NCBI GenBank assembly: GCA_964245315.1
Contig: CAXTMK010000002.1
Coordinates: forward strand, 29,231-93,230
Length of the DNA stretch: 64,000 nucleotides
Direction: 5' to 3'
Source: an uncultured Acidobacteriaceae bacterium
Lineage (GTDB): Bacteria; Acidobacteriota; Terriglobia; Terriglobales; Acidobacteriaceae
The notes beneath the pieces were generated by a model. That model worked only from the letters and a program-made list of their open reading frames with translations. It was not told where the DNA came from and ran no database searches. This document shows positions 9,191 to 30,146 of the stretch, in pieces. Made by a program: the position numbers and the translations under genes. Each line of letters begins with the position of its first letter. Position 1 is the stretch's first letter.

Positions 9191-9191
9191 G

Positions 9192-13341: not shown

Positions 13342-14568
13342 CTAGCGCAGTGGGTTGATGCCCTGCAGCTTCAGGTTGATGAAGGGGATGTAGAGGTTGA
13401 TCCAGCCTGCCCCGGACGGATGAATCAGATCGCTGGTCAGGTAGGTGGACCAGTTGTAACTGTTCAGCGCGCTTTCGGCGTACAGGTGCATCACCGGCAC
13501 TCCATAGCTGGCGCAGACCTGCTCGATGGCATTCGCGATCGGACCCATCGCCGCGGCACGTGTGCCCAGCTGGCCCACCGTTTGATCGCCGACGTGCCAG
13601 GGCTCGATCCAGACGATCCGCGTATAGGCAGGGATCGCACCGAGCAGACCGTTCAGCGCGAACCTGACGTAGCCATAGACGGAATTGGTCGCCGCCGAAT
13701 CGGTCATCGAGCCCAGACTTACATCATTGAAGTCGTTCACCCCGAGCTGGACGAAGAGGATATCCGGCGCAGCCGCGGCGAGATCCTGCGTTAGCGTGTT
13801 GCCTGCCTTACCGGTGTTTGCGATCTGGTCCGGCCCTCCGCCCGCGGCGCACGTTCCCCAGCCTCCGCCGGCCGGAGCCTCGGCCGCCTGCTGATTGGTT
13901 CCGCTTACCGGGTTTCCCTGGTAGCACTCGAAGATCCCGTTTGAGGCCTGTATCGTGCTGCCGATCGGGCGCGCCGACCGGACATCCTCGAAGCTGATCG
14001 TCATGTTGTTGGCGGCGGCGATGGCCTTTTGCCAGACCAGGCCGAACGCCTGCGAGTAGCTATCGCCGATGACGGCCATTGTCTTGCCGCTCCACGGGCT
14101 CGGAGTCGGAGGTCCGGCTGGTCCGACGGGGCCAGCCACACCCGTGGGGCCGGTTGGTCCGGAAGCGCCCGTCGCTCCCGTCGCTCCCGTCGCGCCAGCC
14201 GGGCCGGTCGGGCCGACGATACTCACACCGGGAAGGCCTTGCGGCCCTTGTGTTCCCTGCGGCCCTGCGGCTCCCACCTCGCCGGCGGATGCCAGGACAG
14301 CCCAGTCGGCAACGCTGGACGGGTTTCCCACTGGCGGGATGTTGGTGCTGGACGCGAGCGCGACATACGACGATCCCAGGTACGTCACCACGTCGGTTGT
14401 CGCATACAGCGTGCCGGCAACGTAGGCGTTCCTGAAGACGAGACCTGGCGGTCCGGCAGGGCCCTGCGTGCTGATTACCTGGCCGGTCGAACATCCGCTG
14501 AGAGAAAGACAGCAGGCGAATATGAGAATCGAAACAGACTTGCGCAGGAAAAGCGGGCTTCCAGTCAT
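13342..14568 (-). CDS. Lipoprotein SGNH/GDSL hydrolase with a carbohydrate-binding-like module and collagen-like repeats
   Basis: Lipobox LSGC; Y.AGTLY...DVVTY.GSSYVA module; G-X-Y repeats; GDSY, GVND and DLIHP catalytic blocks. Confidence 0.85.
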
Positions 14569-14612
14569 CCTTTGAACCTCAGTTGTGCGGATAGGCTTCG
14601 TTTATAGAGTTA

Positions 14613-14849
14613 TCACGTCGCAGAGAGCAGCAGCCGCAGCAGCCCAAAAAGCAGACCGAAGCCAACAAGGAACAGCACGACCGAGAGACCAGCTCGCCAA
14701 CCGGCTCGGAGAATCACTGGCGTCAGCTTCTCCACGATATACAGCGCGTCATTCGAGATGATAACTGTCGGAGGAGGAGCGGCCGCGCATTCGTCATGGA
14801 CGGCGTTGCCCCACCCGGCCGGCTTTCCGCATACGGTGCAGGTTGCCAT
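14613..14849 (-). CDS. Small Zn-ribbon membrane protein downstream of the repressor
   Basis: CTVC...HDEC plus a C-terminal TM helix; starts 6 nt after the repressor stop. Confidence 0.65.
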   Translation of the reverse strand: MATCTVCGKPAGWGNAVHDECAAAPPPTVIISNDALYIVEKLTPVILRAGWRAGLSVVLFLVGFGLLFGLLRLLLSAT

Positions 14850-14855
14850 AGTTCC

Positions 14856-15593
14856 TCACTTCCTCTTTGTTGGCGGGGGTTGGCCGATCCACATCACGAC
14901 TTCCCCGACGATGGACCACTCGCCTTCGGCCCGCATGATCTGAACCTGGTGACGCTGAGATGTCCGCTGTGGCACCAGGAGGTAAAGATTATCGCTCTGC
15001 TTTTGAAGCCACTTGATCGTGATGCCGTCCCCATCGCGGGCGGCGACCATGCGGTTGACCAGGCTGCTTGCCTTTCGTTGCGTTGTGTCGACGAGCGCCA
15101 CATAGCCGGTCTCAAGAATCGGCGACATCGAATCACCGTCTACCTTCACCCCAACCAGCTTTCCGCCTAAAGGCACCAGGTGCTTCGGCAGCGAGAGCAT
15201 GTAGTCAATCGCTTGCTCGTCAACCGCGCGGGGTGTTCCGGCTGCCGCCGCATCCCGCAGCACTGGCACCCGCCGCAAGGTATCATCCGCGTCCTGCGGT
15301 GCCGCCGATTCGACGCCGGCTTCGGCAACCCACCAACCGGCCTCATCCTCCGGTGCGAGCTTCGCCATCGCGAGCAACGCGCGCGGTCCCGGCAGGTCTT
15401 GCCCCTTCTCCCAACGCGAGATCTGAACGGAGCTGCACCCACAGGCAGCCGCCATATCCGTTTGCTTCATACCTAACAGACTTCTCAACTCTTTGACTTT
15501 AGGCGCAATACGGGCAATCGCCTCGCGGCGCAAAAGAACCCTTTTATTTGTGTTGACACTCACTAAAGAATCCTTTAGCGTTTCACCTAACAC
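14856..15593 (-). CDS. Prophage repressor (XRE HTH + S24 peptidase); true start probably ~15500-15535
   Basis: MKQTDMAAACGCSSVQISRWEKG HTH; AAAG cleavage-like site; VDGDSMSP and ITIK catalytic Ser/Lys. Confidence 0.92.
   Translation of the reverse strand: MLGETLKDSLVSVNTNKRVLLRREAIARIAPKVKELRSLLGMKQTDMAAACGCSSVQISRWEKGQDLPGPRALLAMAKLAPEDEAGWWVAEAGVESAAPQDADDTLRRVPVLRDAAAAGTPRAVDEQAIDYMLSLPKHLVPLGGKLVGVKVDGDSMSPILETGYVALVDTTQRKASSLVNRMVAARDGDGITIKWLQKQSDNLYLLVPQRTSQRHQVQIMRAEGEWSIVGEVVMWIGQPPPTKRK
15553..15581 (+). promoter_or_regulatory. Sigma70 early promoter with an internal palindromic operator
   Basis: TTGACA (15553) - 17 nt - TAGCGT (15576); CTAAAG-AATC-CTTTAG palindrome at 15563-15578. 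Confidence 0.75.
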
Positions 15594-15605
15594 CGAGGCA
15601 TCAAT

Positions 15606-15820
15606 TTGAACTCCCAGTTTAGCCCGAAGATCGAAGCAATCCGACTCGCTACCCGGAAGCTTCCGAATTCAGCGAGATTGCCCGTGAGCAGGGTGTAACG
15701 CCTGGCCACGTCCGCAGGGTGTTCTGGGGCCTTTCGGTGTCCTCGCGGATCAGCAAGGCGATCGAGCGCAAGGTCGCACAGCGCGAGCGGAAGATGCGTG
15801 ACCGGGAGCGTGCCGCTTGA
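15606..15820 (+). pseudogene. Ner/Cro-like HTH gene with a 1-nt frameshift
   Basis: TTG start with a GAGG RBS gives MNSQFSPKIEAIRLATRKLPN. The HTH FSEIAREQGVTPGHVRRVFWG... is in the -1 frame and ends at TGA 15820, overlapping the next TTG start. Confidence 0.7.
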
Positions 15821-16308
15821 ACTCATGGCCTAACTCTCGCAGTTCCGTTTCGGAACCGTCTACGGAAACTTTCGAACAAAGAATTTCCTCATCCGAGCAG
15901 GAACGCCTCAGCTTTGGTGCAAACGACGTTCTCTCAGGCAGCTATGACGACGCTTCCATGATTCGCGGAGTGCTCATCCAGGCAATCAAGCGCAGCGGAA
16001 AATCCCGCGCCGCCATTGCCGAAGAGATGGAGTTCCTGCTCGCCCGCCCTGTAACGGAAAAGATGCTGAACGCGTTTACCGCAGAGTCGCGTGATGATCG
16101 CCGCTGGCCTGCTGAGTTCGACCGGGCGTTTTGCCGTGCCACCGGCGACGACACGCTGCTGGCCTGCCGCGCCCGTCTCGCGGGCCTCCATGTCATCACC
16201 GAGGAAGAGCGGCTCCTGATGGAGCTGGGCCGCCAGTACCTGATGCGCAATCAGGCGGAAGAGCAGATCGCAATCCTCCAGCGCCGCCTGCACGGGAGAG
16301 TCGCATGA
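15817..16308 (+). CDS. Mu-like phage regulatory / 'DNA transposition' protein
   Basis: AIKRSGKSRAAIAEEM...V+EKMLNAFTAESR...P...FCRATGD pattern, directly before the transposase. Confidence 0.65.
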   Translation: MNSWPNSRSSVSEPSTETFEQRISSSEQERLSFGANDVLSGSYDDASMIRGVLIQAIKRSGKSRAAIAEEMEFLLARPVTEKMLNAFTAESRDDRRWPAEFDRAFCRATGDDTLLACRARLAGLHVITEEERLLMELGRQYLMRNQAEEQIAILQRRLHGRVA

Positions 16309-18413
16309 GCGCTGCATTGGCCTATCTCCCCGTCTCGATCGCGCCCTCGGCGGACTGGATCACGAAGGATCAGATCATCAGCGGCGCGGGTGTGTCGGCG
16401 CGCTGGATCGAGATGCTGACTACGCGGCAAGTCCTCATCACGCGCGAGCTGTCGGTGCGTGGAAGGAATGGCCGTCCGGTTCGCGAGTACCTCATCTCAT
16501 CGTTGCCAGACTATCTGCGCGCCAAGCTGCAGCCCGCCGCTCCAGCGCCGCCGCCGATCCCCGCTGCGTCGCCGTTGCAGCCGCTTTTTGCCAGCCTGCC
16601 GGCAGAGCCGCCCGTCCGCGTCAAGGTGCCGGCCGAGCATCAGGCCGAGGTGGCGCGGTGCAAGGCGCTGATCCAGCCGCTGCTCGACTTCGCCCAGGAT
16701 CGCGGCCGCTACGCTGCGCTGCGCTTGCAGGATGGCCGCGCGGTCACCAGCGTGGACATGCTGGCGCTGCACATCGCCGAAACCGAGACCGCCGCCGGCC
16801 GGCCGGTAAGCGGACGCACTCTGACCCGCTGGGTCGCGGCCTGGAAGCGGGACGGCGACATCGCGCTCGCGCCGAAGGTTCGCACAGACAAGGGCCGCAG
16901 TCGTTGGGCGACGGACAACAGAGTGATGGCGGACCTCGCCGCCTGGATCGCGATCGGCGACGCCAACCAGCCGCCGCAGTCGGTGATGGTGGCGTGGGAG
17001 CAGGTCTGCGCCTACGCCGACGAGAACGGAATCGACGCGCCCAGCTACGAGACGATCCGCAGCTTCCTTGGAAATCGCAACGAGGTGAGCGCGTCGATGA
17101 AGTCGCTGCAGACACGGGGCAAGCGCGGCTACGAGAAGGTCTTCGCGGGTTACCTTCAGCGCGGCTATACCGAGCCGGCAAACCAGATTTGGATAAGCGA
17201 CCACATGTTGGCGGACGTTCTTGTTCAAGATGACGTGTTTGAAAAGGACCTGAAGCACTGCCGCATCCAGATGACGACGATCATCGACTATCGCTCCCGC
17301 CTGGTGGTCGGGGTGAGCTGGTGCCGCAACGGTTCGAGCCATTCCATCAAACGCGCGCTGCTGCCCGCGATCCTGCAATACGGCCCGCCTGCAATCTTCT
17401 ATATCGATAACGGCAAAGACTACCGCAAGGTGGGCGGCAAGTCCGAGCTGCTGCGGGCGCGTGAGTTCGCCGGCGAAGAGGTCGATAAGCTGCGCGGCAG
17501 CGTGCTGAACCGGCTCGGCATCGAGGCGAAGTATTGCAAGCCGTACCACCCTCAGGCCAAGCACATCGAAAAATATCACGGCTTCTACCATGCTCGCGTC
17601 GACCGCACCTTTCCGACCTACACCTCGGGCGCCACCCACCTGCGCCGCGACGAGACGGTTGAAATCCTCGTCGAGCACAAGAAGCTGGTCGCGATCGACG
17701 ATACGCGCAGCTCGAAGATGCCGCTGGCCAGCGAGTACATCGCGATGGCCGAGGCGTGGATCTTCGGCGAGTACAACCATCGCCCGCACGAGGGCGAAGG
17801 CATGAGCGGCCGCAGCCCGGCAGAGTGCTTCCAGCAGGAGCTGAACCCCGCGCAGAAGCCGTCCCCGGCGTTCGAGGAGCTCGCCGCGCTGATGGCCGAG
17901 CACACCCTGCGCAAGGTCCGCAACGGCGCGGTGGAGATCGACGGCACGCGCTTCGTCGCCGCCTACGACGACATGCAGGCCACGGCGAGGATGCACGAGC
18001 TGAGCGGCGCGGACGGCAAGGTCGACGTGGCTTACGACCCGCTAAACATGGAACGTGCCGTGGTGCTCGATCTGGACGGCCGCCCGCTCTGCAAGCTGAT
18101 CGCGCAGGGCCTGACGCGCTTCTCCGATGATGACGAGACCCGCGCCGAGATCGCCGGCATGGAGCAGCAGCGCGGCATGATGCTGAAGGCGACGCGGCAG
18201 TCGATCCGCGACCTCAGCGCGCGCGTCAACGATGCCGGCCACAAGCCGCTGGTCGCGCAGCTCCGCGCGCAGGCTCAGCTCCCAGAAATCAGCAGCATCA
18301 TTCACAAGCCGCGCAAGACGGCCTCGGGCGAGACTGCCGCACCATCCGCCCCGGCGTATGTGGCGGACACCATTGAACGATTTTTACGGAGACGCGCCAA
18401 TGCAAATTCCTAA
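16305..18413 (+). CDS. Mu-type DDE transposase A
   Basis: ATG 16305 overlaps the upstream stop; WISDH, YIDNGKDY and AKHIE DDE motifs; YNHRPH; C-terminal beta domain. Confidence 0.95.
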   Translation: MSAALAYLPVSIAPSADWITKDQIISGAGVSARWIEMLTTRQVLITRELSVRGRNGRPVREYLISSLPDYLRAKLQPAAPAPPPIPAASPLQPLFASLPAEPPVRVKVPAEHQAEVARCKALIQPLLDFAQDRGRYAALRLQDGRAVTSVDMLALHIAETETAAGRPVSGRTLTRWVAAWKRDGDIALAPKVRTDKGRSRWATDNRVMADLAAWIAIGDANQPPQSVMVAWEQVCAYADENGIDAPSYETIRSFLGNRNEVSASMKSLQTRGKRGYEKVFAGYLQRGYTEPANQIWISDHMLADVLVQDDVFEKDLKHCRIQMTTIIDYRSRLVVGVSWCRNGSSHSIKRALLPAILQYGPPAIFYIDNGKDYRKVGGKSELLRAREFAGEEVDKLRGSVLNRLGIEAKYCKPYHPQAKHIEKYHGFYHARVDRTFPTYTSGATHLRRDETVEILVEHKKLVAIDDTRSSKMPLASEYIAMAEAWIFGEYNHRPHEGEGMSGRSPAECFQQELNPAQKPSPAFEELAALMAEHTLRKVRNGAVEIDGTRFVAAYDDMQATARMHELSGADGKVDVAYDPLNMERAVVLDLDGRPLCKLIAQGLTRFSDDDETRAEIAGMEQQRGMMLKATRQSIRDLSARVNDAGHKPLVAQLRAQAQLPEISSIIHKPRKTASGETAAPSAPAYVADTIERFLRRRANANS

Positions 18414-19401
18414 AGACAGACTCGCAGTGATGGAGGCCGCTACGCCCGCGGCCGAGGAGCTTCGCGCCCGCACCAGGGCGTACATGGCCACCGCGCAGCT
18501 CACGATGCCGCAGATGGCGCAACGCATCAACTACGGCCGCAGCTCGCTCGCGTACTTCATGGCGGGCACCTACATCAGCAGCGGCTTCGCGCAGACCGAC
18601 GTGCAGATCCGCAAGGCGTTATGCGATTACATGGACGCAAACCCCGTTGAGGTCGAGACCGGTACGCACGGCCGGCTGCACGAGACCGGCAACGTCGCAG
18701 TGATGAGGAAATGGTTTCAGCACTGCATCGACCGCCGCGAGATGGTGGGCATCTACGGACCGCCCGGCGCGCAGAAGACCTTCGTCTTCGAACATCTCGT
18801 CGCCGAGCACAACGCCAGGGAGATCCCGAAGAACGGCCACGGCACACGGGCGTACTACGTGTATTGCTCGCAGGACATCTCCAAGCGCGACCTGCTGCGT
18901 GCGATGTGCCGCGCGGCCGCGCTGCCCTCGGGCCGCGGCATCCAGGAGCTGATCAACACCATCGCGCACGCCCTGCAGTCGCGCCGCGCACTCTTCGTGC
19001 TGGATGAGGCGCAGCACCTGTCGATCCCTTGCCTGGAGATCGTCCGGCAGCTCAACGACCGCAAGCCCAACGTCGGAATCATCCTCAGCGGCAGCCATCG
19101 CCTGTTCGAGTTGTTCCGCGAGAAGGCGCCCGAGCTTGAGCAGTGGAACTCGCGGATCCACGCGTTCGTCGAGCTGCCCGGCATTGCCGCCGCCGAGGTC
19201 TACGCCATCCTTGAGGCCGAGCTCGGCCCCATGTCGATGGCGGAGATGAAGGACTTCCTGCAGGACATCACCGTCACCGATCGCTTCGGCAAGAAGACGC
19301 GCAGCTACTACTCGGCGCGCCGGCTGTTCCGCACCATCAACGGCCTCAAAGCCGATCCCGCCTTCGCTTCCATCGCCGCACAGAAAGAGGTTGCCGCATG
19401 A
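18400..19401 (+). CDS. MuB-like AAA transposition ATPase
   Basis: N-terminal HTH, GPPGAQKT (variant Walker A), VLDEAQHL Walker B. Confidence 0.9.
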   Translation: MQIPKDRLAVMEAATPAAEELRARTRAYMATAQLTMPQMAQRINYGRSSLAYFMAGTYISSGFAQTDVQIRKALCDYMDANPVEVETGTHGRLHETGNVAVMRKWFQHCIDRREMVGIYGPPGAQKTFVFEHLVAEHNAREIPKNGHGTRAYYVYCSQDISKRDLLRAMCRAAALPSGRGIQELINTIAHALQSRRALFVLDEAQHLSIPCLEIVRQLNDRKPNVGIILSGSHRLFELFREKAPELEQWNSRIHAFVELPGIAAAEVYAILEAELGPMSMAEMKDFLQDITVTDRFGKKTRSYYSARRLFRTINGLKADPAFASIAAQKEVAA

Positions 19402-19730
19402 CCACTCGCCCGATGCCCAAGCACGCCGATCGCTATCTCAGCCAGCCCTGCGGCCCGTTCGCCGATGGCTTCTACGCCTGGCTGGTGCGCAACAATCGCC
19501 ACGCTCCGCAACTGCTGCGCGCCGTGGCGTTGCCGCTCGTCTACCTGATCCTGTTCGGCTGCTTCCTCGCCGACGAGATCGACCTGCAGCTCGCGCAGCT
19601 CCGCTTCCGCACCATCGACCGTGTCGCCGAGCGCCTGATGCAGGCCCTCGTGCTCTTCTCCGCGATGATGCTGGCGATCTGGATCCTCGACGCGCTGCTG
19701 TCCGGCGCGTTCAGTCGGGCGGTGCGCTGA
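19398..19730 (+). CDS. Phage early membrane protein
   Basis: Two hydrophobic segments; ATGA coupling. Confidence 0.55.
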   Translation: MTTRPMPKHADRYLSQPCGPFADGFYAWLVRNNRHAPQLLRAVALPLVYLILFGCFLADEIDLQLAQLRFRTIDRVAERLMQALVLFSAMMLAIWILDALLSGAFSRAVR

Positions 19731-19818
19731 TGCGCTTTTCCTCGACCCTCGAACTTTCCGCGGTGGTCACCGTCTGCGCCGCCCTGCTGTTCTTCGCCTG
19801 GCTGGCAGGAGGCTGCAA

Positions 19819-20118
19819 TTGAGCCCCCGCGTGGCATGGTGCAGCGGCTGCCGCGCAATGCAGCCGGTCAGCCGGCACTGGCGCGCGCTCTGGATCGACG
19901 GCGACGGCGACCTGATCTGCACGCTGCCCGAGCGCGGCTGCGATCTCGAGTATGAGCGCCCCGGCACGGTGTTCGCGTGCGGCCAGGGCGCGGCGCTCGC
20001 GCTCACCGAGCGTTACCTTCACTCGCACAGCTTCGGCGCGTGCGAAGACCTCAGCCCCGCGCAGCCGGGACACACCGGCGACGCCTCAACCCAGCACCTT
20101 TCGGAGATTGTCCTATGA
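19819..20118 (+). CDS. Cys-rich hypothetical protein
   Basis: WCSGC...LICTLPERGC...VFACG; overlap-coupled to its neighbours. Confidence 0.5.
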   Translation: MSPRVAWCSGCRAMQPVSRHWRALWIDGDGDLICTLPERGCDLEYERPGTVFACGQGAALALTERYLHSHSFGACEDLSPAQPGHTGDASTQHLSEIVL

Positions 20119-20702
20119 CCACCGCAACCCAACCATCCGCCGCCGACCTGGACGCCGTAGCCGTCGAGGCTCAGGTTCGCCAGGCCACCGCGCCCACCCC
20201 TGTCATTACGCCCACTGCGTTTGAGATCGACACCGCCATCGAGCGTTATGAGTACGCGCTGCTGCTCGGCAAGGCGGCCGATAGGGCCATCGCCGATGAG
20301 AAGGCGAAGCTCACGGCCCTCGTCGAAAGCTTCGGCCAGGTACCGGCGCACGCAGGCCAGTCCAAGCGCCTCGCCGGCCAGCACAACGAGGCCACTATTA
20401 CCTGGTCGACCAGCTACACCGTCATCGAGGAGCGCGTCGAGGCGTTCGATGTCTACCTCGCCGCGCAGGGCTACCGCGCGATCTTCGGGCGGTTCTTCTC
20501 TCCCGTCACCAAGCACAAGATGGTCGAAGGCGCGCACGACGTGCTAAAGACGCTCGACCTGCCCAACCGCATCCGCGAGAAGGTCGCGGCGCTGGTAGGT
20601 CTTGCCATCGCGGTCAAGACTTCGGCGCCGTCGCTGAAGGTGAAGACGATCCAGCCGGAGAAGCCCGCGCGCACGAAGCGGGCAGCAAAGGTGGCCGCCT
20701 GA
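20115..20702 (+). CDS. Hypothetical early protein (Gam/DUF3164-like position)
   Basis: ATG 20115 overlaps the upstream TGA; helical N-terminus and basic C-terminus. Family not firmly recognised. Confidence 0.55.
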   Translation: MTTATQPSAADLDAVAVEAQVRQATAPTPVITPTAFEIDTAIERYEYALLLGKAADRAIADEKAKLTALVESFGQVPAHAGQSKRLAGQHNEATITWSTSYTVIEERVEAFDVYLAAQGYRAIFGRFFSPVTKHKMVEGAHDVLKTLDLPNRIREKVAALVGLAIAVKTSAPSLKVKTIQPEKPARTKRAAKVAA

Positions 20703-20989
20703 TGGCAGACAAGTTCACCAACCTCGACGAGACGCACGCCACGCTCATCGGCGTCTTGATGGTCGCCGCGAAGTTTCTCCAGATGTCATTGAAAGATGCT
20801 CTTCTCCACGAGGCCGATCCCACCCTTCCACATACCGGAGCGCATCACCACTTCCTGGTGATGTCTCTTTCCCAGCTCGCGCGCGGCGACGGCGAGCAGT
20901 TAGAGAAGGACACGCTCGCGCTCGCGAAGGTCCTCGGCTTCAATGTTCAGCAAGAGTTCCTCAAGAAGCAGACGGAGACCGTGCAATGA
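20702..20989 (+). CDS. Hypothetical protein
   Basis: TGATG-coupled ORF in the early operon. Confidence 0.55.
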   Translation: MADKFTNLDETHATLIGVLMVAAKFLQMSLKDALLHEADPTLPHTGAHHHFLVMSLSQLARGDGEQLEKDTLALAKVLGFNVQQEFLKKQTETVQ

Positions 20990-21231
20990 GACGAGTCGCC
21001 ACCCAGCTCAGCGATGCCACGGTCCTGATGAACTCGATGCGCGGCAACCTCTCGCGCGTGTCGTCGCTCGACGGCGCGCGCAACCCCGATGAGTCGCTGC
21101 GCGAGGTCAAGGAAGCCATTGCCAGCGGCAACCATCTGCTGGCCATCCTCGACGATCTGCGCAGCCGCTACGTCGGCGCCTGCCTCGCCAAAGACAAACG
21201 CAGCACCAACGTCACGGAGATCTCCCGATGA
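20986..21231 (+). CDS. Hypothetical protein
   Basis: ATGA-coupled ORF. Confidence 0.55.
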   Translation: MRRVATQLSDATVLMNSMRGNLSRVSSLDGARNPDESLREVKEAIASGNHLLAILDDLRSRYVGACLAKDKRSTNVTEISR

Positions 21232-22430: not shown

Positions 22431-22474
22431 CCAGCAGCAACGAGCACCAATGAGCAGCACGGGAGGACAGCACG

Positions 22475-22966
22475 ATGGCCGCCGATCTTGATTTCGAACG
22501 TTCGATCTATCGCAACTCCACGCAGGGGCCTGCGCCGGCGGGGTCTCTCTTCGAGACCTTCGCCGACCAGGTGCTGCGCCGCGTCGACGACGTGCTCGCC
22601 GGCCGCGACTGCCCGTTTCGCGCCGACGTGAAACAGGATACCTTCCTGCAATTCCTGCGCCAGCACCAGGGTAAGCGCCGCGCCGTCTCGCGCGAGAGAT
22701 GGTGCTATGCCCTCGCCATCTCCGATCGCGAGGTGCGTGAGGTCGTGCAGTCGCTCCGCCAGGACTTCGGCGTCGCGATCGGCGCGGCCGAGGACGGCGG
22801 CTACTTCCTCGTCGAGACCGAGCAGGAGTTCGCCGACGCGATACGCAGCCTGCGCCAGCGCGCCGTCACTATCCTGCGCGTCGCGCAGGGCATAAGCCGC
22901 GGCCGCGCCACCATCGACGACCTGCTGCACCAGCTGCGGCTCGAACTGAGCGAGGAGGTGCGCTGA
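22475..22966 (+). CDS. Winged-helix DNA-binding protein
   Basis: HQGKRRAVSRE...ISDREVREVVQSLR...G..IGA....GYF, typical phage wHTH. Confidence 0.7.
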   Translation: MAADLDFERSIYRNSTQGPAPAGSLFETFADQVLRRVDDVLAGRDCPFRADVKQDTFLQFLRQHQGKRRAVSRERWCYALAISDREVREVVQSLRQDFGVAIGAAEDGGYFLVETEQEFADAIRSLRQRAVTILRVAQGISRGRATIDDLLHQLRLELSEEVR

Positions 22967-23346
22967 TGCCGCTTTATAACTTCCAACCTCAGTTCGTAGC
23001 GAAGATCCTCAGCGGCGAAAAGCGCCACACGATTCGCGCTAAGCGAAAGCGCCCGACGAAGGCCGGCGAGAGGCTCTACCTCTACACCGGGCTTCGGCAG
23101 AAGGGTGCACGCAAACTGCTCGACGCCGTGTGCACGAAGGTTCAGGACATCAGCATCGTGCGGATCAAGAGGGTTGGCGTGGTGATCGTGACTATTGATG
23201 GCATCGATCTTCATTCGTCCGAGCGCGAGGAGCTTGCAAGGCGCGACGGCTTCGACAGTTGGGGCTGGATGCTGAAGTTCTGGGAAGATCGGCTGCCGTT
23301 CCACGGCGACATCATCCATTGGAAACCGCTGAAGGAGGTGCGCTGA
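22966..23346 (+). CDS. ASCH/PUA-like domain protein
   Basis: F..KILSGEKRHTIR...AG+.LYLYTG.R...ARRDGF signature. Confidence 0.8.
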   Translation: MPLYNFQPQFVAKILSGEKRHTIRAKRKRPTKAGERLYLYTGLRQKGARKLLDAVCTKVQDISIVRIKRVGVVIVTIDGIDLHSSEREELARRDGFDSWGWMLKFWEDRLPFHGDIIHWKPLKEVR

Positions 23347-23777
23347 TGCCGAGCAACTATCCAGAGACGCGGCGCGAGCTGCTGCGCGCCGGCTACAAGT
23401 TCCTCAACAACTCGAAGTGCAAGAGCTGCGATGCGCCCATCGAGTGGTGGAAGACGACGAACGGCAAGCTGCTGCCGTTCAACCCGATGGCCGATGACAA
23501 CGCGCTCGCGAAAAAGCACACCTGTCCGGATGCGAATCGCACTGTGCCGCTGCCCGCCGCGACGCCGGTGCCGGCCGCGATCGGCGACCTCAAGACGATC
23601 GAGGAGCGCGTGAACTCGCTGCGCCGCGCGACCAATGCCCGCGTCATCGTGCTGCTGACCGAGGATGGCGGCGAGGTGACCGCATGGCGCACCGGCCTGC
23701 GCGGCGAGGATCTGCGCAACGACCTCATCACCGTCGCAAACAACGTCCGCAACGAAATCGTGAAAGGTGGCTTCTGA
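23346..23777 (+). CDS. Zn-finger hypothetical protein
   Basis: [21 protein letters not shown]...H..C. Confidence 0.6.
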
Positions 23778-24382
23778 TGGCAACGAGATCTACAAGTGTT
23801 CCCGCATTCCCCTTGAATTGGCCGTCTGGGGTTCCGCGCACCAAAGCTGCCGATCGCGAGCGCTCGCGCTTCGGCAATGTGAAGTGGAATAACGCGCTCG
23901 CCGACCTTCGGACAGAGCTGTCCAGACTCGGCGCTCAATACGTCACGCTTTCTACCAACATGAGGATTCGCAACGATGGCGAACCCTATGCGCAGGTGAG
24001 CCGCATTGATGATCCGGGCGTCGCGGTCTACTTCACGCTCGACGGCGTCCAGGTGTGCTTTCCCTGCGACCGCTGGCTCTCCATCGCGGAGAACTTCCGC
24101 GCGGTAACGTTGCACATCGAAGCGATGCGCGGGCAGCAGCGTTGGGGCGTCGGCACGGCCAGGCAGGCGTTCGCCGGATACAAGGCGCTGACCGCGACGG
24201 CCGGCGAGGCGGAGGATTGGTGGTTTGTCCTCGGCATCCTCAGCACGGCGACGGCCGACCAGATCAACGCCGCGCATCGCGAGCTGGCGCGCAAGTTCCA
24301 CCCGGATCGCGGCGGCACGGCCGAGCAGATGGCCCGGATCAATACGGCACGCGATCGCGCGTTGGCGGAAAGGAGCGCGTGA
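23777..24382 (+). CDS. Phage J-domain (DnaJ-like) protein
   Basis: C-terminal WW.VLG...A..DQI..A+[19 protein letters not shown]; N-terminal LSTN...DDPGVAVYF...CDRW domain. Confidence 0.85.
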
Positions 24383-24537
24383 TGCCATTCATCGACATCT
24401 CGAAGATTGAGCGCGGCGTCCACGATCCGAATGTCGACAGCCTGTGCCTGATCGGTGCGGCGCTCGGCGTCGACGGCTGGCGACTGCTGCGGTTTGCGCA
24501 GCGCAAGGCCAGGGAACAGCGCGAGGTTACCCTATGA
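24382..24537 (+). CDS. Short XRE-HTH-like protein, probably N-terminally truncated
   Basis: ISKIERG..DPNVDSLC.IG.ALGV retains only the recognition helix onward. Confidence 0.5.
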   Translation: MPFIDISKIERGVHDPNVDSLCLIGAALGVDGWRLLRFAQRKAREQREVTL

Positions 24538-25220
24538 GCGAAACGATGAACTGCTCGATCTGCGGCGACGAGGTGCTCGCGATGCGTGGTGGGCGTTGCA
24601 AGCCCTGCATCTGCCGCGCACTTACGCCGGTCAAGAAGTACAACTGGACACCCGACATCGAGGGCGCTCTCCGCCGTGCGTACCAGGCAAAGCGTAAGAT
24701 TGACTGCACACGCGCGATCGACGAACTGGTGCGCCGCACGCGTTGGCCGCGGTATGTGTTCATCAACAAGGCTCAGCAGCTCGACCTGCGTGTGACGATC
24801 TCGCGCGGATGGTCGGCGCAAGAGCGCGCCACACTGCGCGAACTGGCCGGGGAGCTACCCCCGTACAAGATCGGCCAGCGGCTGCATCGCTCACCGCAGA
24901 GTGTGAAGCAGAAGATCTTCGCGATGGGCCTCAGCGCCCAGGTGACGCGTGGTTACAGCCGCAACGAGCTGGCGAAGCAGATGGGCGTGAGACACGAGTC
25001 CGTTGAGCGCTGGATCGGGCGCAACTGGCTGCGGATTGATTCCAACGACCGAATTACCGACGACTCGATCACGCGCTTCCTCTGGGACCACATGGATGAG
25101 TACCGCTTCCGCAACTGCGACGAGCAGTGGCTCAAAGTGATGCTCAATCCTAACTTCGGCAAAATTCGCGACCCGCGCAAAGATGCGATGCCAGATTATG
25201 CAATCCGGAGGATGGCGTGA
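24534..25220 (+). CDS. Putative DNA-binding protein (Zn ribbon + Myb-like repeats + HTH)
   Basis: CSIC..CKPC; WTPDIEGALR and WSAQERATLR repeats; YSRNELAKQMGV.H.SV.RWI HTH. Confidence 0.6.
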   Translation: MSETMNCSICGDEVLAMRGGRCKPCICRALTPVKKYNWTPDIEGALRRAYQAKRKIDCTRAIDELVRRTRWPRYVFINKAQQLDLRVTISRGWSAQERATLRELAGELPPYKIGQRLHRSPQSVKQKIFAMGLSAQVTRGYSRNELAKQMGVRHESVERWIGRNWLRIDSNDRITDDSITRFLWDHMDEYRFRNCDEQWLKVMLNPNFGKIRDPRKDAMPDYAIRRMA

Positions 25221-25609
25221 GCGACATCATCAGGACGTGGCCGGCGAGCTGCAACGTGCGCCAGGTGCATGAGATGTTCCGCGGCGAGGAGTTCCCCGGC
25301 AGCTACTATTTCACGCTCGGCCGAGGCAAGCCGAAGCAGCAGATCGAGCGGCTGTGGTGGACGTGGCGCGGACGCATCCTCGGCTACTTCGAGATCAAGC
25401 AGATCCAACAGAATATCGGCCAGTTCGGCCACCTGCACTCGATCAGCGACGGCGAAGCATGGACCATCCGGCCCGATCACTGGGTGGCGATCTGCCACAC
25501 CGCCTGCGTGCCGTCGCCCGAGCGCATTTACATGAGCGGCTTCAGAGGCTTCCGCTACTTCGACTTCGAAAGCTACCGGAAGACGGCGGAATCGAGGATG
25601 AGGCTATGA
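25217..25609 (+). CDS. Hypothetical protein, possible PUA/EVE/ASCH-like fold
   Basis: Aromatic-rich; G+I.GYF strand and terminal GFRGFRYF motif. Confidence 0.45.
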   Translation: MSDIIRTWPASCNVRQVHEMFRGEEFPGSYYFTLGRGKPKQQIERLWWTWRGRILGYFEIKQIQQNIGQFGHLHSISDGEAWTIRPDHWVAICHTACVPSPERIYMSGFRGFRYFDFESYRKTAESRMRL

Positions 25610-25887
25610 TCTTCGGCGGCCCGATGGACAAGTGGGAACACGAGCTGCAGAAGGTCGGCAAGACTGGCCTGCTGGAGTTGATCGACATGCTTCTGTTCGG
25701 GCGTGGCTATGACCGCGACCAGCTGCTGGGCATGGTGGTCAACGCTCGTAAGTACGGGCGTTCGATGGACCAGATCGCGCGGTACCGCCGCGAAGCACTC
25801 GACCCGGACAAAGCGATAGAGCGCAGGTTGCGCCGAAGTCTGAAAACGCTGAAGGCAAAGCGGGCAGTCAGGAAAGGAACACGATGA
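25606..25887 (+). CDS. Hypothetical protein
   Basis: ATGA-coupled, basic C-terminus. Confidence 0.5.
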   Translation: MIFGGPMDKWEHELQKVGKTGLLELIDMLLFGRGYDRDQLLGMVVNARKYGRSMDQIARYRREALDPDKAIERRLRRSLKTLKAKRAVRKGTR

Positions 25888-26573
25888 AGAACGATTACCA
25901 GCAGCTCGGCGAGGAGATCGGCAAGCTCGTCGACCAGAAGCGCGAGTCCTACGGCAACAGCTTCGGCACCAGCGTCGAGTGTCTGAAGCTGCTCTACCCA
26001 AACGGCATCCAGCCGCGGCAGTTCGAGGGCGCGCTGCTGGCGGCGCGGATCTTCGACAAGCTGGCGCGCGAAGCCGAGGGTGCCGACATGTTCTTCGAGT
26101 CGCCTTACCTCGACATCGCCGGCTACGCGATGCTCGGCATCGTTTCGAAGAAGGAAAGGGAGAGCAAGGAATGCGGGTCTGTCAGCGGGAGCAATGCGGG
26201 CGCAAGGTCGACGGAACCAAACGATTCTGCGGAGCCAGATGCCAGCAGGCCGACTACGCCGAACGACGAAAGCAGAAGCTCGCCGAGTTCAGGGCCGCGG
26301 TCGACCGAGCCGCCCGACTCATCCTCGAAAGAGATGGATGCCCTTGCTGCGGAACGAAGCAGCTTAGCCGTCGTGGTCGACCGCGCCAAAAATAGGAACG
26401 CAGAGGGCCTATGCGTCGCTTGTCCTTGCGAGGCGGGCGGTGAACCTTTACCAGCAAGGCCTTACTGCCACCTCTTCTTATTTCAAGGGGTCTGGCTGTG
26501 GGCTCACAACGATACCTGCAGGGTCCACTTCACGGGTCAGGCATCGAGAGACACGGGGTTACAACTACATTGA
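25884..26573 (+). CDS. DUF1599/Nmad1-like N-terminal domain with a low-complexity extension
   Basis: K..SYGNSF...RIFDKL.R...ES.YLDIAGYA.L; the C-terminal half overlaps another ORF. Confidence 0.55.
   Translation: MKNDYQQLGEEIGKLVDQKRESYGNSFGTSVECLKLLYPNGIQPRQFEGALLAARIFDKLAREAEGADMFFESPYLDIAGYAMLGIVSKKERESKECGSVSGSNAGARSTEPNDSAEPDASRPTTPNDESRSSPSSGPRSTEPPDSSSKEMDALAAERSSLAVVVDRAKNRNAEGLCVACPCEAGGEPLPARPYCHLFLFQGVWLWAHNDTCRVHFTGQASRDTGLQLH
26171..26395 (+). CDS. Nested Zn-finger protein in an alternative frame
   Basis: MRVCQREQCGRKVDGTKRFCGARCQQAD...CPCCG, with AAGGA directly upstream. Confidence 0.5.
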   Translation: MRVCQREQCGRKVDGTKRFCGARCQQADYAERRKQKLAEFRAAVDRAARLILERDGCPCCGTKQLSRRGRPRQK

Positions 26574-27082
26574 TCGCCCCGTCCATCACCGCTCCTCAGC
26601 GCAGGCGCCTACAGACGCTCTACTCGCAATACGAGCGCCACACCCTCGACGTCGTCGACTCCTCGCGCGCAGCCCGCATGCAGTGGGCAAGCGCGCAGAT
26701 CGGCCGCCCGATCGACAGCTTCAACGGCCTCACCAAGATCGAGGCGAAGCGCCTGATCGAGCAGCTGCAGGGCATCCTCAACGTCAAGGCGCCCAACAAG
26801 ACGCCGCGCCGCCAGAGCCGCAGGCTCGCCGAGAAGATGGGCACCGAAGGCCGGCACGATCAGATCCACGATGAGACCACGCTGGCGGGCGCACACGAGG
26901 CCGAGCTGATCCAGCGCGACCTCACCCGCCTGGGCTGGACGGAAGCGCGCCTGGAGGCGTTTCTGCGCTCGCCACGCAGCCCGCTGAAGGGCAGGCACAG
27001 CATCCGCACGCTGGGCGATGCCAACGCAATCCACTGGGCCCTGAAGAGATTCAAACCTGATGCGGAAAGGATCGCGAGTTGA
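26570..27082 (+). CDS. GemA/gp16-like regulatory protein
   Basis: TTGA overlap start; S...LT..EA..LI..L and LGW....L..F....L......A..+..ALK repeats typical of Mu GemA. Confidence 0.6.
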   Translation: MIAPSITAPQRRRLQTLYSQYERHTLDVVDSSRAARMQWASAQIGRPIDSFNGLTKIEAKRLIEQLQGILNVKAPNKTPRRQSRRLAEKMGTEGRHDQIHDETTLAGAHEAELIQRDLTRLGWTEARLEAFLRSPRSPLKGRHSIRTLGDANAIHWALKRFKPDAERIAS

Positions 27083-27086
27083 CGCC

Positions 27087-27656
27087 ATGAAGCCAGCCGC
27101 CGCCGACTATCCCACGCTCTTCGACATTCACCCCACCGGCACCGAGCCGCCCATCGCCCAGCGCAAAATCACGCCCGGCTGCCTGCTGCCCGCGCCCGAC
27201 AATCTCTTCGTCGACGCGACCAGGGCTGCCCTGATCCTTGACGTGAGCTACACGCAGCTGCGCGTCATGCTCGGCGCCGGTCTGCTGGCCGGTTACCAGA
27301 TCAACCGGCGCAACGGCTGGAAGGTCCTGTATAGCTCCATCGTGCAGTTCTGCGACGGCCTGCGCGTGAAGTACCACATCGCCGACCGCCGCGCCCGCAG
27401 GCTCGCGCCGGGCATGCGCTGGCGCGACGCCGAGCTGCTCCCGTTTCCGAAGGAAGACACCGTCAGCGTCGACGAGGCGATGGTCGGCTTCGGCTTCAGC
27501 CGCCAACGCGTGATCCACCTGCTCGAAGAGGGCAAGGTCGACGCCTACCAGCTCTACGGAAAGTGCGCGTGGAGAATCAGCAAGTCGTCGCTGTTCGCCT
27601 TCCGCGACCGCAAGAAAGACGAGCTCGGCCTGCCCGCTTCGGTCTCGAACCGATAG
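27087..27656 (+). CDS. Tandem excisionase/MerR-like HTH protein
   Basis: Two repeats: ATRAALILDVS..QLR.ML..G.L.GYQI...GWKV and VDEA...FGFSRQRVI.LL.EGK+DAYQL...AWRI. Confidence 0.65.
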   Translation: MKPAAADYPTLFDIHPTGTEPPIAQRKITPGCLLPAPDNLFVDATRAALILDVSYTQLRVMLGAGLLAGYQINRRNGWKVLYSSIVQFCDGLRVKYHIADRRARRLAPGMRWRDAELLPFPKEDTVSVDEAMVGFGFSRQRVIHLLEEGKVDAYQLYGKCAWRISKSSLFAFRDRKKDELGLPASVSNR

Positions 27657-27715
27657 AGATTCGATCTTCGCCAGTTTGCGTTGAGCAAACCTCTCGCGCG
27701 CGCGAGGATGGCACC

Positions 27716-30133
27716 ATGCGATTCCTCCGCAGCGCCCTCACCGCACTCCTCGCCGTTGCCGTCGGCCTCGCGCCCGCATACGCGCAGACGAACTATACGA
27801 CCAACATCACGCAGACTAATCTGCTCGCGGGCGGTACGCCGGTCGCCAACGCCAAGGTCTGCGCCACGGCCGTCGACCAGGTGGGCAACCCGATCACGTT
27901 CTCCGCACCCTCGTGGGGACTGATCCTCGCGAACACTCCTTTCTGCGGCGCGGTCTCGGCGGGTGCGATCACGGGCGGAATCAACGTGCCGGACGCCAAC
28001 CACACCAACAACCCGTCGCCGATCCACTACAACATCACGATTCAACTGCTGGCCAGCGCCGGTGGCGCTCCCACCGCGCCTCCGATCGTGCTGTCCAACG
28101 TGCCGAACGTCAGCGGCACAACCTACTCGCTCGACAGCTACGCGCCATCGACTGTCGCGGCTATTCCCGCGAATGTCATCGTCGCCGGCCCAGGCGCACC
28201 CGGTTCCTGCGCGGGCAATTCGCTGGATATCGACACCACGTCGATGGCCCTCTACGGCTGCAAGTCCGGCGCCTATACCTTGCTCGCCAGCACGGGATTC
28301 AACCTGCGCGGCGCATGGGCCGCCAGCACCGCGTATGCCCTTTACGATGTCTTCAACTACCAGGGAAGCAGCTATGTCGTGACGACTGCCTTCACCTCGG
28401 GCTCAACCTTCAGCGCGACAAACACCATGATGCTGGCGGCGGCCGGAGCGGCCGGACCTACGACGCCAGCCCAGCTTGCGGCGGGTTCCGGAGCGGCTGT
28501 CAAGGATGTCTACGCGGCGCTCGGAGCGACGCTGCACAATCGCTTCAGTGGGAGCTGGACCAATGGCGGTCTGACATGCCCGGACGGTAACTTCCATGCC
28601 GGCTCCCCGAACTACTTCTGGACCTCGGGCTATATCTACATCGCCGACCTGGCCACGTGGCAGGTCAACCAGACGATCGGGAACACAACCTATGATCCGA
28701 CTTATGCCATATACGACGAGAATTTGACTACTCTCGCATGCGTAGTGGATGGTCAGCCGGGTGGAACAATCTACAACAATGTGACGGGTGGCTTTTGGCT
28801 GCGCTTCGTAGCTAATGGCGTCTTCACGCCCAGTACAGCCATGCTTATCGACGGCAGCCTGACCATGCCGTCTACTTACCTTCCTTATGGCTACGTCTAC
28901 CCGGATGCAACCTTTGTCGCAGGCCTCAAGCAGAATATCCCGACTTCCGCGAACTTCAACTTCCAGATAAATCAACAGGTCCAGGCTCTGATAAGTGCGT
29001 CTTCCCCTGACGTTCGAAACCTGTTCGATTCCACGAAGTATCAGCCTGCGTACCAATGGGATACAACAACCAGTACGCTCCGCAACGAAACGGGCTCCTT
29101 CCAGGGCGTCTCCGCGCCCATCCCGGTCATCGCCGGCGCGACCTATACCGTCGTCACACCCGCCGAAAGCGGTACCACGCCTGGCGGAGGACTCTTCCTC
29201 GACGCGAACCTCAACCCCATCTGGTCGACCCTTCACACTGGGCCATTCACCGCGAATTACACCGTCACCGCGCCCGCAAACGCCGCGTATCTGGCGGCTC
29301 TGATGGCGAACGCGAACGCAGCCATAACAATGGTTGTGCAGGGAACGACTGTCCCGTCCTACTACATCCCGTTTGCGCAACCCCCCAGCACGACGCAGAA
29401 CCGATCGCCGTGGAGCGGCAAGCGGCTGGGTGTCATGGGCGACTCCTACAGCGCCTCATTCGGGAACATCTGGCAGCTTGGCGTCGAGGCATACCACAAC
29501 CTTATTCCGGTCTTTCAGGACGCGCGGGCGGGGCGGCCAGTCGGCGGCAGCAGCACGAACGGAATTTTTGAGTGCTACGGCGGTACGTCCACCGGCACAA
29601 ATGTCGGCGCTTCCGTCTCGCCCGGAGGCGGAGGGTACGGCAACTGCGCGGCCGCCAACAACGGCACAGTGGGCAACACGCTGGCGCAGGATATCGCCAA
29701 CGTCGACCTGATGATCGTCGAGATGGGAACCAACGACGTCTATGGCGAGACGCTCGGCACCATCGCCGATTCGGCATCTACGGCTTCGACCTATGGGTAC
29801 ATAAAGCTCGCGCTCAATGGCTTGCTCGCGGCCAGGCCGCAGATGCGCATCGTTTGGGTAGAGCCTTGGCAGGTCGGCGACTCAACCGTAACCAACACCA
29901 CGTCCGGGCAGACCCGCGCGCAGCAGATGCCGGGTGTAGCCGCCGCGATCGAGGCCGTCTGTGCGCAGTACGGCGTTCCCGTCGTCAAGATGCTTTCAGA
30001 GGCCGGCCTGAACAGCTACAACTGGTCGATCTTCCTCAACACCGACCTGATCCACCCCTCCGCGCTCGGGTGGACGAAGGCCTGGATTCCGACCGTCAAC
30101 CTCCGCCTGAACAACATCACACCGCTGAATTAG
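27716..30133 (+). CDS. Secreted multi-domain SGNH/GDSL hydrolase, tail-fibre-like architecture
   Basis: Signal peptide MRFLRSALTALLAVAVGLAPAYA-Q; RGAWAASTAY..YDV.NYQGSSYV module; GDSY, GTND and DLIHP catalytic blocks. Confidence 0.85.
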   Translation: MRFLRSALTALLAVAVGLAPAYAQTNYTTNITQTNLLAGGTPVANAKVCATAVDQVGNPITFSAPSWGLILANTPFCGAVSAGAITGGINVPDANHTNNPSPIHYNITIQLLASAGGAPTAPPIVLSNVPNVSGTTYSLDSYAPSTVAAIPANVIVAGPGAPGSCAGNSLDIDTTSMALYGCKSGAYTLLASTGFNLRGAWAASTAYALYDVFNYQGSSYVVTTAFTSGSTFSATNTMMLAAAGAAGPTTPAQLAAGSGAAVKDVYAALGATLHNRFSGSWTNGGLTCPDGNFHAGSPNYFWTSGYIYIADLATWQVNQTIGNTTYDPTYAIYDENLTTLACVVDGQPGGTIYNNVTGGFWLRFVANGVFTPSTAMLIDGSLTMPSTYLPYGYVYPDATFVAGLKQNIPTSANFNFQINQQVQALISASSPDVRNLFDSTKYQPAYQWDTTTSTLRNETGSFQGVSAPIPVIAGATYTVVTPAESGTTPGGGLFLDANLNPIWSTLHTGPFTANYTVTAPANAAYLAALMANANAAITMVVQGTTVPSYYIPFAQPPSTTQNRSPWSGKRLGVMGDSYSASFGNIWQLGVEAYHNLIPVFQDARAGRPVGGSSTNGIFECYGGTSTGTNVGASVSPGGGGYGNCAAANNGTVGNTLAQDIANVDLMIVEMGTNDVYGETLGTIADSASTASTYGYIKLALNGLLAARPQMRIVWVEPWQVGDSTVTNTTSGQTRAQQMPGVAAAIEAVCAQYGVPVVKMLSEAGLNSYNWSIFLNTDLIHPSALGWTKAWIPTVNLRLNNITPLN

Positions 30134-30146
30134 CGGCTGATGCTGT

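Follow-up and report, generated by a model that had tools for sequence, protein, structure and literature searches.

Two SGNH esterase genes with export signals in an acidobacterial prophage

We analysed a stretch of 64,000 nucleotides from an uncultured Acidobacteriaceae bacterium (contig CAXTMK010000002.1, positions 29,231 to 93,230), which is referred to as the window and within which all positions are counted. PHROG scans of the window proteins identified a Mu-like transposable prophage spanning positions 1-30491, and within this prophage two open reading frames (ORFs), named ORF A and ORF B, encode proteins that combine an export signal with a small module resembling carbohydrate-binding module (CBM) families 5/12 and a C-terminal SGNH esterase domain:

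13342..14568, minus strand: ORF A (SGNH-A), 408 amino acids; lipoprotein signal, CBM5/12-like module, collagen-like stalk, SGNH esterase
Parts of ORF A: Cys26 lipidation site; CBM5/12-like module ~44-93; G-X-Y stalk 96-154; SGNH domain ~160-408, with Ser170, Gly256, Asn278, Asp380 and His383
27716..30133, plus strand: ORF B (SGNH-B), 805 amino acids; signal peptide, N-domain, CBM5/12-like module, middle region, SGNH esterase
Parts of ORF B: signal 1-23 (cleavage after AYA, before Q); N-domain 24-190; CBM5/12-like module 194-245; middle region ~250-555; SGNH domain 560-805, with Ser577, Asn673, Asp777 and His780

An earlier note, made from the letters of this DNA, had placed two genes with a common SGNH domain and intact catalytic blocks in a prophage, and both points hold. 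Residues 150-408 of ORF A and 557-805 of ORF B share 133 of 264 aligned positions (50%, E 7e-80, BLASTP), and all of the SGNH motifs that the note had listed are present in this alignment. The Pfam family Lipase_GDSL_2 (PF13472, gathering score 32.9) is matched with 52.4 bits by ORF A and with 42.9 bits by ORF B. In an alignment of 18 sequences, the catalytic columns of ORF A (G168-D169-S170, G256, G276/N278/D279, D380, H383) are invariant and the equivalents in ORF B (G575-D576-S577, G671/N673, D777/H780) invariant or near-invariant, and both proteins have Block I (GDS), Block III (GxND) and Block V (DxxH) of the SGNH superfamily. AlphaFold2 predicts an alpha/beta/alpha fold for the domain with a predicted local distance difference test (pLDDT) score of 80-96, to which Foldseek assigned 7bxd, 3dc7 and Axe2 with probability 1.00 and target-normalised template modelling scores of up to 0.73. 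The top matches among solved structures are carbohydrate esterases, namely 7bxd, 3dc7, the acetylxylan esterase Axe2 and sialate O-acetylesterases.

The W/Y-rich modules of both proteins, which the earlier note had called sugar-binding-like, resemble CBM5/12. They align with each other in a second BLASTP high-scoring segment pair (ORF A 13-75 vs ORF B 169-227, E 7e-05), but Pfam CBM_5_12 (PF02839) scores below its cut-off of 26.2 bits in both (ORF A 15.9, ORF B 14.1). The predicted structure of the module has a pLDDT of 82-91, its matches in BFVD include proteins named ChiC_BD and ChiA1-BD, and relatives bear precomputed PF02839 hits. Overall, AlphaFold2 gave confident models of two parts of ORF A, its SGNH domain and its CBM-like module (pLDDT ~82-96), and of ORF B at 190-245 and 560-805; residues 250-555 of ORF B, part of the putative beta-rich body of the earlier note, have a pLDDT of ~30, and its N-domain is likewise without a usable model.

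A recent duplication within the genome was considered as the origin of the pair and rejected, since the two esterase domains are just 50-54% identical. The esterase of ORF A is 54% identical to that of ORF B and 27-33% identical to the lipoprotein esterases of the P0011/P0017 type, and it clusters with ORF B and the homolog P0124 in a neighbour-joining tree. Two further homologs from two different assemblies, P0135 and P0131, have esterase cassettes that are 79% identical from the same linker onward. P0135 is a chromosomal protein of the lipoprotein-collagen form and P0131 a fibre-like protein with a signal peptide, whose gene immediately follows the J-like gene in a lambda-like prophage. A single catalytic cassette thus moves from scaffold to scaffold, which suggests that both scaffolds bring the enzyme to the same substrate. 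The close relationship of their catalytic domains makes it most likely that ORF A and ORF B share a target, with both removing one O-acetyl group from a common envelope or exopolysaccharide glycan. Among cultured-phage genomes, only weak matches to the SGNH domain were obtained, in Clostridium phage CPD2 (two records) and in one Staphylococcus phage.

Export signals of ORF A, ORF B and their homologs

The export signals that the earlier note had seen in both proteins are present and are kept in relatives. ORF A has a charged n-region (R9, K10), a hydrophobic h-region and a lipobox, L-S-G-C26, at the end of …LSLSGC26, which fits the pattern [LVI][ASTVI][GAS]C in a pattern check. ORF B starts with MRFLRSALTALLAVAVGLAPAYA followed by QT, in which MRFLR is succeeded by SALTALLAVAVGLAP and then by AYA in front of Q (…APAYA before QT). 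According to our heuristic this is an n-h-c peptide of the Sec type with an AxA motif for signal peptidase I; the longer ORF with a GTG start at 27563 need not be assumed.

The heuristic flags ORF A, ORF B and most of their homologs. Ten full-length relatives of ORF A were listed, six of which have a lipobox (P0003, with LLTGC, P0005, P0007, P0010, P0011 and P0017) and three a Sec-type peptide (P0015, P0016 and P0020); lipoboxes also occur in P0126, P0135 and P0174. A signal peptide was flagged in 20 of the 25 N-domain relatives of ORF B, and the remaining five comprise three sequences that start inside the peptide and two with a peptide that the heuristic missed. When exported and signal-less forms are aligned, the mature start of the former coincides with Met1 of the latter, and several of the signal-less relatives show there the N-terminal beta-domain motif that is found behind the cleavage site of the exported forms. 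Homologs with a signal peptide contain about twice as many cysteines as the others (13 vs 7 per 1000 residues; Mann-Whitney p 1e-6), which is expected if they fold in an oxidising compartment and thus fits real export. The most economical reading of these sequences is that ORF A and ORF B both leave the cytoplasm.

A position-conserved locus at the right end of related phages

Between ORF B and the right end of the phage at 30491 there is no further gene. In nine relatives (L003, L027, L028 and L031-L036), its position is always taken by a protein of 783-1389 amino acids with a signal peptide and a variable C-terminus, so that such a protein stands at the right end in all ten phages of the group. 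A gene for an HTH_17-domain protein adjoins it in eight of the nine relatives, the counterpart in L031 not having been called. The position is thus kept and the content variable, some of the right-end proteins having a GDSL domain and others no recognisable one; in the N-domain and middle region of the relatives' proteins, PHROG yielded no match.

The N-domain of ORF B contains two invariant cysteines (Cys49, Cys77) and two near-invariant ones (Cys165, Cys182) in a 16-sequence alignment, and its profile has no sequence match in the PDB. The middle region of ORF B is homologous to phrog_11541 and to tail-module proteins, and PHROG tail-fibre families are matched. Its relationship to virion tail proteins, as proposed in the earlier note, is supported by the homolog P0132, which has no signal peptide, is 44% identical to ORF B over residues 418-804 and is encoded in a tail module between the tape-measure gene and a DUF1833 gene.

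While a word-indexed search returned three homologs of ORF B, an exhaustive HMMER search returned 763, which fall into two overlapping sets, one sharing the signal peptide and N-domain (~1-250) and the other the middle region and SGNH domain. Within the N-domain set, the C-termini differ greatly in length and content. IMG/VR holds no close relative of full-length ORF B. For a locus search, the 16-sequence profile of the N-domain proved too diverse and a five-sequence profile was used instead, which matched two viral contigs and gave no match in GTDB genomes. A variant of ORF B with 96% identity is present in an independent metagenome (run X1) and ends at the same phage end.

Further proteins with a signal peptide were seen in some of the relatives. 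Right behind the terminal gene, still inside or at the edge of the prophage, a second one of 565-637 amino acids is encoded in L031 (14269-16182), L032 (14912-16675) and L035 (14292-15989), with a mature start T(N/T)WYIRADGG... in L031 and L032. In L003, a gene interrupted by scaffold gaps (5150-7782, plus strand) lies inside the early region and encodes a second signal-peptide protein (MKHVLKYLFLFAIAAALHAQ...), in which an N-terminal beta-domain of similar kind is combined with repeats, collagen-like units and a C-terminal domain of no known type.

Judged from these comparisons, the best reading of the right-end locus is that it encodes a large, Sec-secreted protein, in which a conserved, cysteine-containing N-domain is combined with a swappable C-terminal part that would derive from tail fibres or tail-associated esterases.

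ORF A as a putative captured accessory gene

The collagen-like region of ORF A (residues 96-154) consists of 19 G-X-Y triplets (7 + 12) with one two-residue break. Pfam Collagen scores 26.1 bits, just below the cut-off of 27.2, and the region is disordered in the monomer AlphaFold2 model. The ORF A family shares an architecture of lipobox or signal peptide, CBM-like module, collagen repeat and SGNH domain, and the best full-length relatives, which are 34-48% identical, are ordinary chromosomal lipoproteins with no nearby phage genes. In the earlier note, such a finding for close homologs had been set as an argument against a phage system; it applies to ORF A loosely, the homologs at 34-48% identity not being close. 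The closest full-length relative, P0135, is 48% identical from end to end and is encoded on a 2.56-Mb contig next to a TonB-dependent-receptor-like gene, a GH39 gene and a glycoamylase gene, whereas P0011 and P0017 sit among housekeeping genes on Mb-scale contigs and have no carbohydrate-use neighbours. A unique chimera built in the phage of the window was also considered for ORF A and was rejected, as P0135 is a chromosomal protein with the same architecture and an esterase of the same clade.

The three related phages with a readable repressor side (L037, L038, L039) have no counterpart of ORF A between the repressor and the endolysin, and in L037 the repressor, the small protein that follows it and an intact methyltransferase gene are contiguous. 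ORF A thus varies among related phages in the manner of an accessory gene, and because it is absent in these three phages and its relatives are chromosomal, it appears to be an insertion. The lysogenic-conversion system that the earlier note had suggested is thus not conserved as a pair of genes: ORF A is missing from these relatives, and the ORF B locus is conserved in position with only some members being SGNH proteins. We read ORF A as a captured accessory gene that would encode a host-type surface lipoprotein. Its place directly behind the repressor is the classical one for lysogenic conversion, in agreement with the interpretation of the earlier note; this is where prophages often keep genes that are expressed in the lysogen, which for ORF A is suggestive only.

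These neighbourhoods bear on the possibility that both proteins are auxiliary metabolic enzymes, which would deacetylate environmental polymers such as acetyl-xylan, chitin or pectin and thereby feed the lysogen, with no role in phage-host recognition. Acidobacteria are polysaccharide degraders. The structural matches include acetyl-xylan and other carbohydrate esterases, both proteins have CBM5/12-like modules, and the neighbours of chromosomal P0135 would suit such a role; soil prophages have moreover been reported to encode many carbohydrate-active enzymes, 5% of which have signal peptides (PMC13507307). We nevertheless regard a purely metabolic function as unlikely, since a right-end locus that is conserved in position and variable in content fits host-surface specificity better, the body of ORF B is homologous to tail-module proteins, the same cassette occurs in lipoprotein and fibre-like scaffolds, and P0011 and P0017 lack neighbours for carbohydrate use.

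Organisation of the carrier prophage

The features of the prophage and of its right end are as follows:

579..12053, minus strand: late module (small and large terminase, portal, MuF-like protein, protease, major head protein, head-tail adaptor)
11520-12053, minus strand: endolysin, part of the late module
12745..13308, minus strand: remnant of a Dam-like DNA methyltransferase gene, directly downstream of ORF A
14613..14849, minus strand: small zinc-ribbon and transmembrane protein between repressor and ORF A, with a same-position counterpart in relative L028/L037
14856..15593, minus strand: CI/LexA-like phage repressor (phrog_4, E 5e-26), heading a leftward unit that continues through the small protein to ORF A
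15817..19401, plus strand: Ner-like regulator, MuA-type transposase and MuB-type AAA+ protein, the start of the rightward early arm that ends in ORF B
within 15817..19401, plus strand: Ner-like regulator (phrog_2345)
16131-18413, plus strand: MuA-type DDE transposase (phrog_310, E 3e-76)
18232-19401, plus strand: MuB-type AAA+ protein (phrog_296, E 2e-31)
27060..27656, plus strand: HTH_17-domain protein, immediately upstream of ORF B
30134..30491, plus strand: right end of the prophage (AGTTCGCTTGGAT-like sites, hairpin, stop of the homology with L003)

On the minus strand, the order is head-tail adaptor, major head protein, protease, MuF-like protein, portal, terminases, lysis genes, methyltransferase remnant, ORF A, small protein and repressor; diverging from it, the plus strand encodes Ner, MuA, MuB, about 20 small early genes, the HTH_17 protein and ORF B. 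The two esterase genes had been described in the earlier note as lying at opposite ends of the early region, which needs correction: ORF A belongs to the repressor/late strand, where it is located in the interval from the lysis genes to the repressor, and ORF B ends the early arm beside the end of the prophage. This layout, with an internal repressor/Ner/transposase switch, head and tail genes leftwards and early genes rightwards, is unlike that of Mu and as in BcepMu-type phages.

The assignment to the Mu-like transposable phages is based on the transposase, ATPase, Ner and repressor switch, all of which matched in PHROG, and on the structure of the end, with clustered repeats, a terminal CA and variable host flanks. 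Five AGTTCGCTTGGAT-like 13-mers (four direct, one inverted) lie at 30147-30340 and nowhere else in the window; they are also kept in L003 and are probably MuA-type transposase-binding sites. A terminator-like hairpin follows ORF B at 30215-30231. The homology with L003 stops at ...TCATATATCTTTGGCAGTGACA (30470-30491), the last letters being GTGACA at position 30491; one independent metagenome contig terminates at 30492, and host genes (M20 peptidase, photolyase, tannase, MnmG and others) follow from 30498 on. Related contigs of 40-44 kb share the same termini.

The left end of the prophage and the target duplication are beyond the window, and the tail genes must be located past its start. The layout of the tail module was accordingly taken from related phages, in which it extends from the adaptor through the tape measure to a J-like protein and is then followed by the genome end, with no separate fibre gene. 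One near-complete relative of the phage of the window, with the same N-domain protein, L033 (CAJCHN010000047.1, 42,858 bp), is binned as Rhodanobacteraceae and is likely a mis-binned phage contig.

The methyltransferase remnant beside ORF A is frameshifted, residues 79-113 of the L028 homolog aligning in another frame, and lacks about 100 C-terminal residues in comparison with the intact 280-amino-acid gene of L028, so that the repressor-side unit may be under relaxed selection. This raises the question whether ORF A and ORF B lack a present function and are carried along, neutrally or in decay, by a prophage that is itself degenerating, with which it would also agree that ORF A is seen in no other phage among the relatives examined. 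We consider this very improbable, as both full-length ORFs have kept their catalytic residues, their signal sequences and the conserved cysteines intact, the genes for structural proteins and for transposition give full-length family matches, and the 96%-identical variant of ORF B was seen in an independent metagenome, where it runs up to the same end of the phage.

Two other features of the window were noted. A lipoprotein of 180 amino acids (…LALTTGC; 10714-11256, minus strand) without a family match is encoded in the lysis region near the endolysin and could possibly be an outer-membrane spanin or another envelope-acting phage lipoprotein. Outside the prophage, an island at 55200-60300 has a low GC content (0.53-0.56 vs ~0.62) and a poor coding signal; it encodes a pentapeptide-repeat protein (57628-58557) and a protein with AAA_33 and metallophosphatase domains (58542-59366), and could represent a foreign insert or a locus of the defence type.

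Putative function as exported receptor editors

From the domain make-up, the catalytic residues, the conserved export signals, the gene positions and the presence/absence pattern, we infer the following picture of expression, cell location, substrate and purpose, which we favour, albeit tentatively. Both genes would encode exported carbohydrate O-acetyl esterases, which are accessory cargo of a Mu-like Acidobacteriaceae prophage, are not part of the virion and plausibly destroy the receptor of the phage. The repressor, the small protein and ORF A are separated by gaps of 6 and 44 bp, and ORF A is, by its position, probably co-transcribed with the repressor in the lysogen. The protein would be lipidated at Cys26, held off the membrane on a trimeric collagen-like stalk with its carbohydrate-binding module, and would present the Ser-Asp-His SGNH esterase outside the lysogen. 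ORF B follows the last early-arm gene (HTH_17) at 59 bp and has no recognisable promoter of its own; because of this, the gene is no less likely to be expressed during lytic growth than in the lysogen. It is probably made with the early or middle transcript after induction and exported before lysis, and would then de-O-acetylate the envelope or slime glycan. The purpose would in both cases be receptor destruction, by which ORF A could exclude superinfection of the lysogen and ORF B could prevent progeny phages from being trapped on the debris and slime around the induced cell; these roles are proposed by analogy to T5 Llp, O-antigen conversion genes and viral receptor-destroying enzymes.

Several points weigh against this picture. 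The signal peptides were judged by eye and with a home-made, crude heuristic, the best structural matches are generic carbohydrate esterases that point to no substrate, and the repressor-side unit may, given the decayed methyltransferase, be under relaxed selection. The public runs that hold the locus are four low-coverage metagenomes and no RNA runs. Promoter and terminator scans of the locus gave counts as expected by chance, except for the hairpin after ORF B, and an alignment of five upstream regions revealed no shared motif upstream of the right-end genes. The remaining points concern the relation of the right-end locus to virion fibres. A conserved N-domain with a swappable C-terminus, as found across the ten related phages, is also a hallmark of receptor-binding tail fibres. 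Since the tail module of the relatives ends at the J-like gene without a separate fibre, ORF B could be the missing fibre, and the genes of its signal-peptide homologs P0133 and P0131 are located directly after a J-like gene, at the site of a side-tail fibre.

These last points, together with the signal-less P0132 inside a tail module, the matches of ORF B to PHROG tail-fibre families and the location of the fibre genes of phage Mu at its right end, speak for a different explanation, namely that ORF B and the whole right-end locus encode a real receptor-binding tail fibre, of which the N-domain docks on the baseplate and the C-terminus both recognises and deacetylates the host glycan. The N-terminus of ORF B would then either be unused for export, or the fibre would be routed via the periplasm and join virions at lysis, while ORF A would act in superinfection exclusion by stripping the acetyl group that ORF B needs. 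Homology of the protein body to products of the tail module, as expected of a virion fibre, applies to ORF B. Neither ORF A nor ORF B, however, is encoded in the tail module, and both have export signals where a cytoplasmic protein would be expected. Every member of the right-end family has a cleavable Sec signal, with the AxA motif and Q right before the conserved mature start, the conserved cysteine pairs and the raised cysteine content point to folding outside the cytoplasm, and the gene stands at the end of the early arm, ~27 kb from the inferred location of the tail genes. Tailed-phage virions assemble in the cytoplasm, and no tail fibre is known to us from which a signal peptide is cleaved off, nor did a literature search find one. 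The exopolysaccharide-modifying enzyme WceF (see below) further demonstrates that an exported tailspike homolog can retain an anchor-like N-domain. We therefore consider it rather unlikely that the locus encodes a virion fibre.

It would also be conceivable, although improbable, that the right-end proteins are receptor-binding fibres that are exported by Sec, acquire disulfides in the periplasm and join the tail tips only at or after lysis, and that ORF A, with the same cassette, is an exclusion factor erasing the acetylated receptor of the fibre on lysogens; fibre and counter-factor would then have been built from a single domain. The pairing of P0135 and P0131 might be another product of the same host-phage arms race, which we likewise regard as a long shot.

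If the two proteins are indeed exported receptor editors, a clade of Mu-like phages of soil Acidobacteria would routinely set aside its right end for a large secreted protein assembled from tail-fibre parts, and the phage of the window would in addition have acquired from its host a surface lipoprotein whose esterase matches. Receptor-binding enzymes of the virion would thus have been turned into exported editors of the receptor, similar to a viral receptor-destroying enzyme, and this would provide a handle on what phages of Acidobacteria recognise, a subject about which almost nothing is known. A protein family with and without a signal peptide moreover offers a clean comparison for how a virion protein becomes secreted. 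Should ORF B be a real fibre instead, a Sec-exported tail fibre would be unprecedented. For annotation, it is relevant that PHROG-based pipelines would label such proteins as 'tail fiber' despite their export signals.

Comparison with known systems

Each of the ingredients (SGNH tail enzymes, esterases of prophages, exclusion lipoproteins and exported tailspike-like enzymes) is known. What appears to be undescribed in the literature searched is their combination in acidobacterial Mu-like phages, in which a position-conserved terminal locus for Sec-secreted, fibre-derived proteins is accompanied by a captured lipoprotein that has a collagen stalk and the matching esterase. As for the carrier, the BcepMu-type Mu-like phages have an internal repressor/transposase region, diverging arms and accessory genes at the ends. 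The phage of the window shares their inverted early region but belongs to a different host phylum, and we know of no report of a terminal, secreted, fibre-like locus in BcepMu-type phages.

T5 Llp and Cor of phi80/N15, small, non-enzymatic, FhuA-binding proteins that block superinfection and shield progeny from debris, resemble ORF A in being phage-borne envelope lipoproteins, and ORF A is located beside immunity functions. In contrast to them, ORF A is a 408-amino-acid enzyme on a collagen stalk, whose role in exclusion is proposed by analogy. Phage-encoded receptor-blocking lipoproteins have been reviewed (PMC11436027).

Lysogenic conversion by modification of the O-antigen is known from the Oac/OacB acetyltransferases and GtrABC (PMC9558356, PMC8952252). 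Like the genes studied here, these are cargo of temperate phages, located near the genome end or the immunity region, and alter glycan acetylation and adsorption; they work from the side of the cytoplasm or the membrane and attach acetyl or glucosyl groups, whereas ORF A and ORF B would remove acetyl groups from the outside. The NanS-p sialate O-acetylesterases of Stx prophages (PMC10462455) are similar to the pair in being SGNH-type carbohydrate esterases of prophages, often in several paralogous copies. They differ in their location in the late region downstream of stx, in their DUF1737/SASA architecture, in serving the use of sialic acid and in having neither a collagen stalk nor a fibre-like body.

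The SGNH tailspikes and fibres of virions (for example gp63.1 of phage G7C, the tailspikes of Vi-antigen phages and the SGNH receptor-binding proteins of Klebsiella prophages; PMC13123978) share with ORF B a C-terminal SGNH domain on a long, modular, fibre-like protein and, presumably, an O-acetylated surface polysaccharide as substrate, in line with the similarity of ORF B to P0132 over residues 418-804. In contrast to these virion proteins, ORF A and ORF B have export signals and are encoded outside the tail module, and ORF A has chromosomal lipoprotein orthologs. WceF of Pantoea stewartii is a Tat-exported, tailspike-like enzyme modifying exopolysaccharide, which has a cleavable signal, is trimeric and carries an anchor-like N-domain (PMC7949094). 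It differs from ORF A and ORF B in being a beta-helix glycanase that is exported via Tat and encoded in a chromosomal exopolysaccharide cluster, whereas ORF A and ORF B are prophage-encoded, bear a lipoprotein and a Sec signal, respectively, and belong to the SGNH esterases. With ORF B, however, WceF would have in common a trimeric architecture derived from phage tails, an anchor-like N-domain, a signal peptide and, as the target, the exopolysaccharide of the producing cell.

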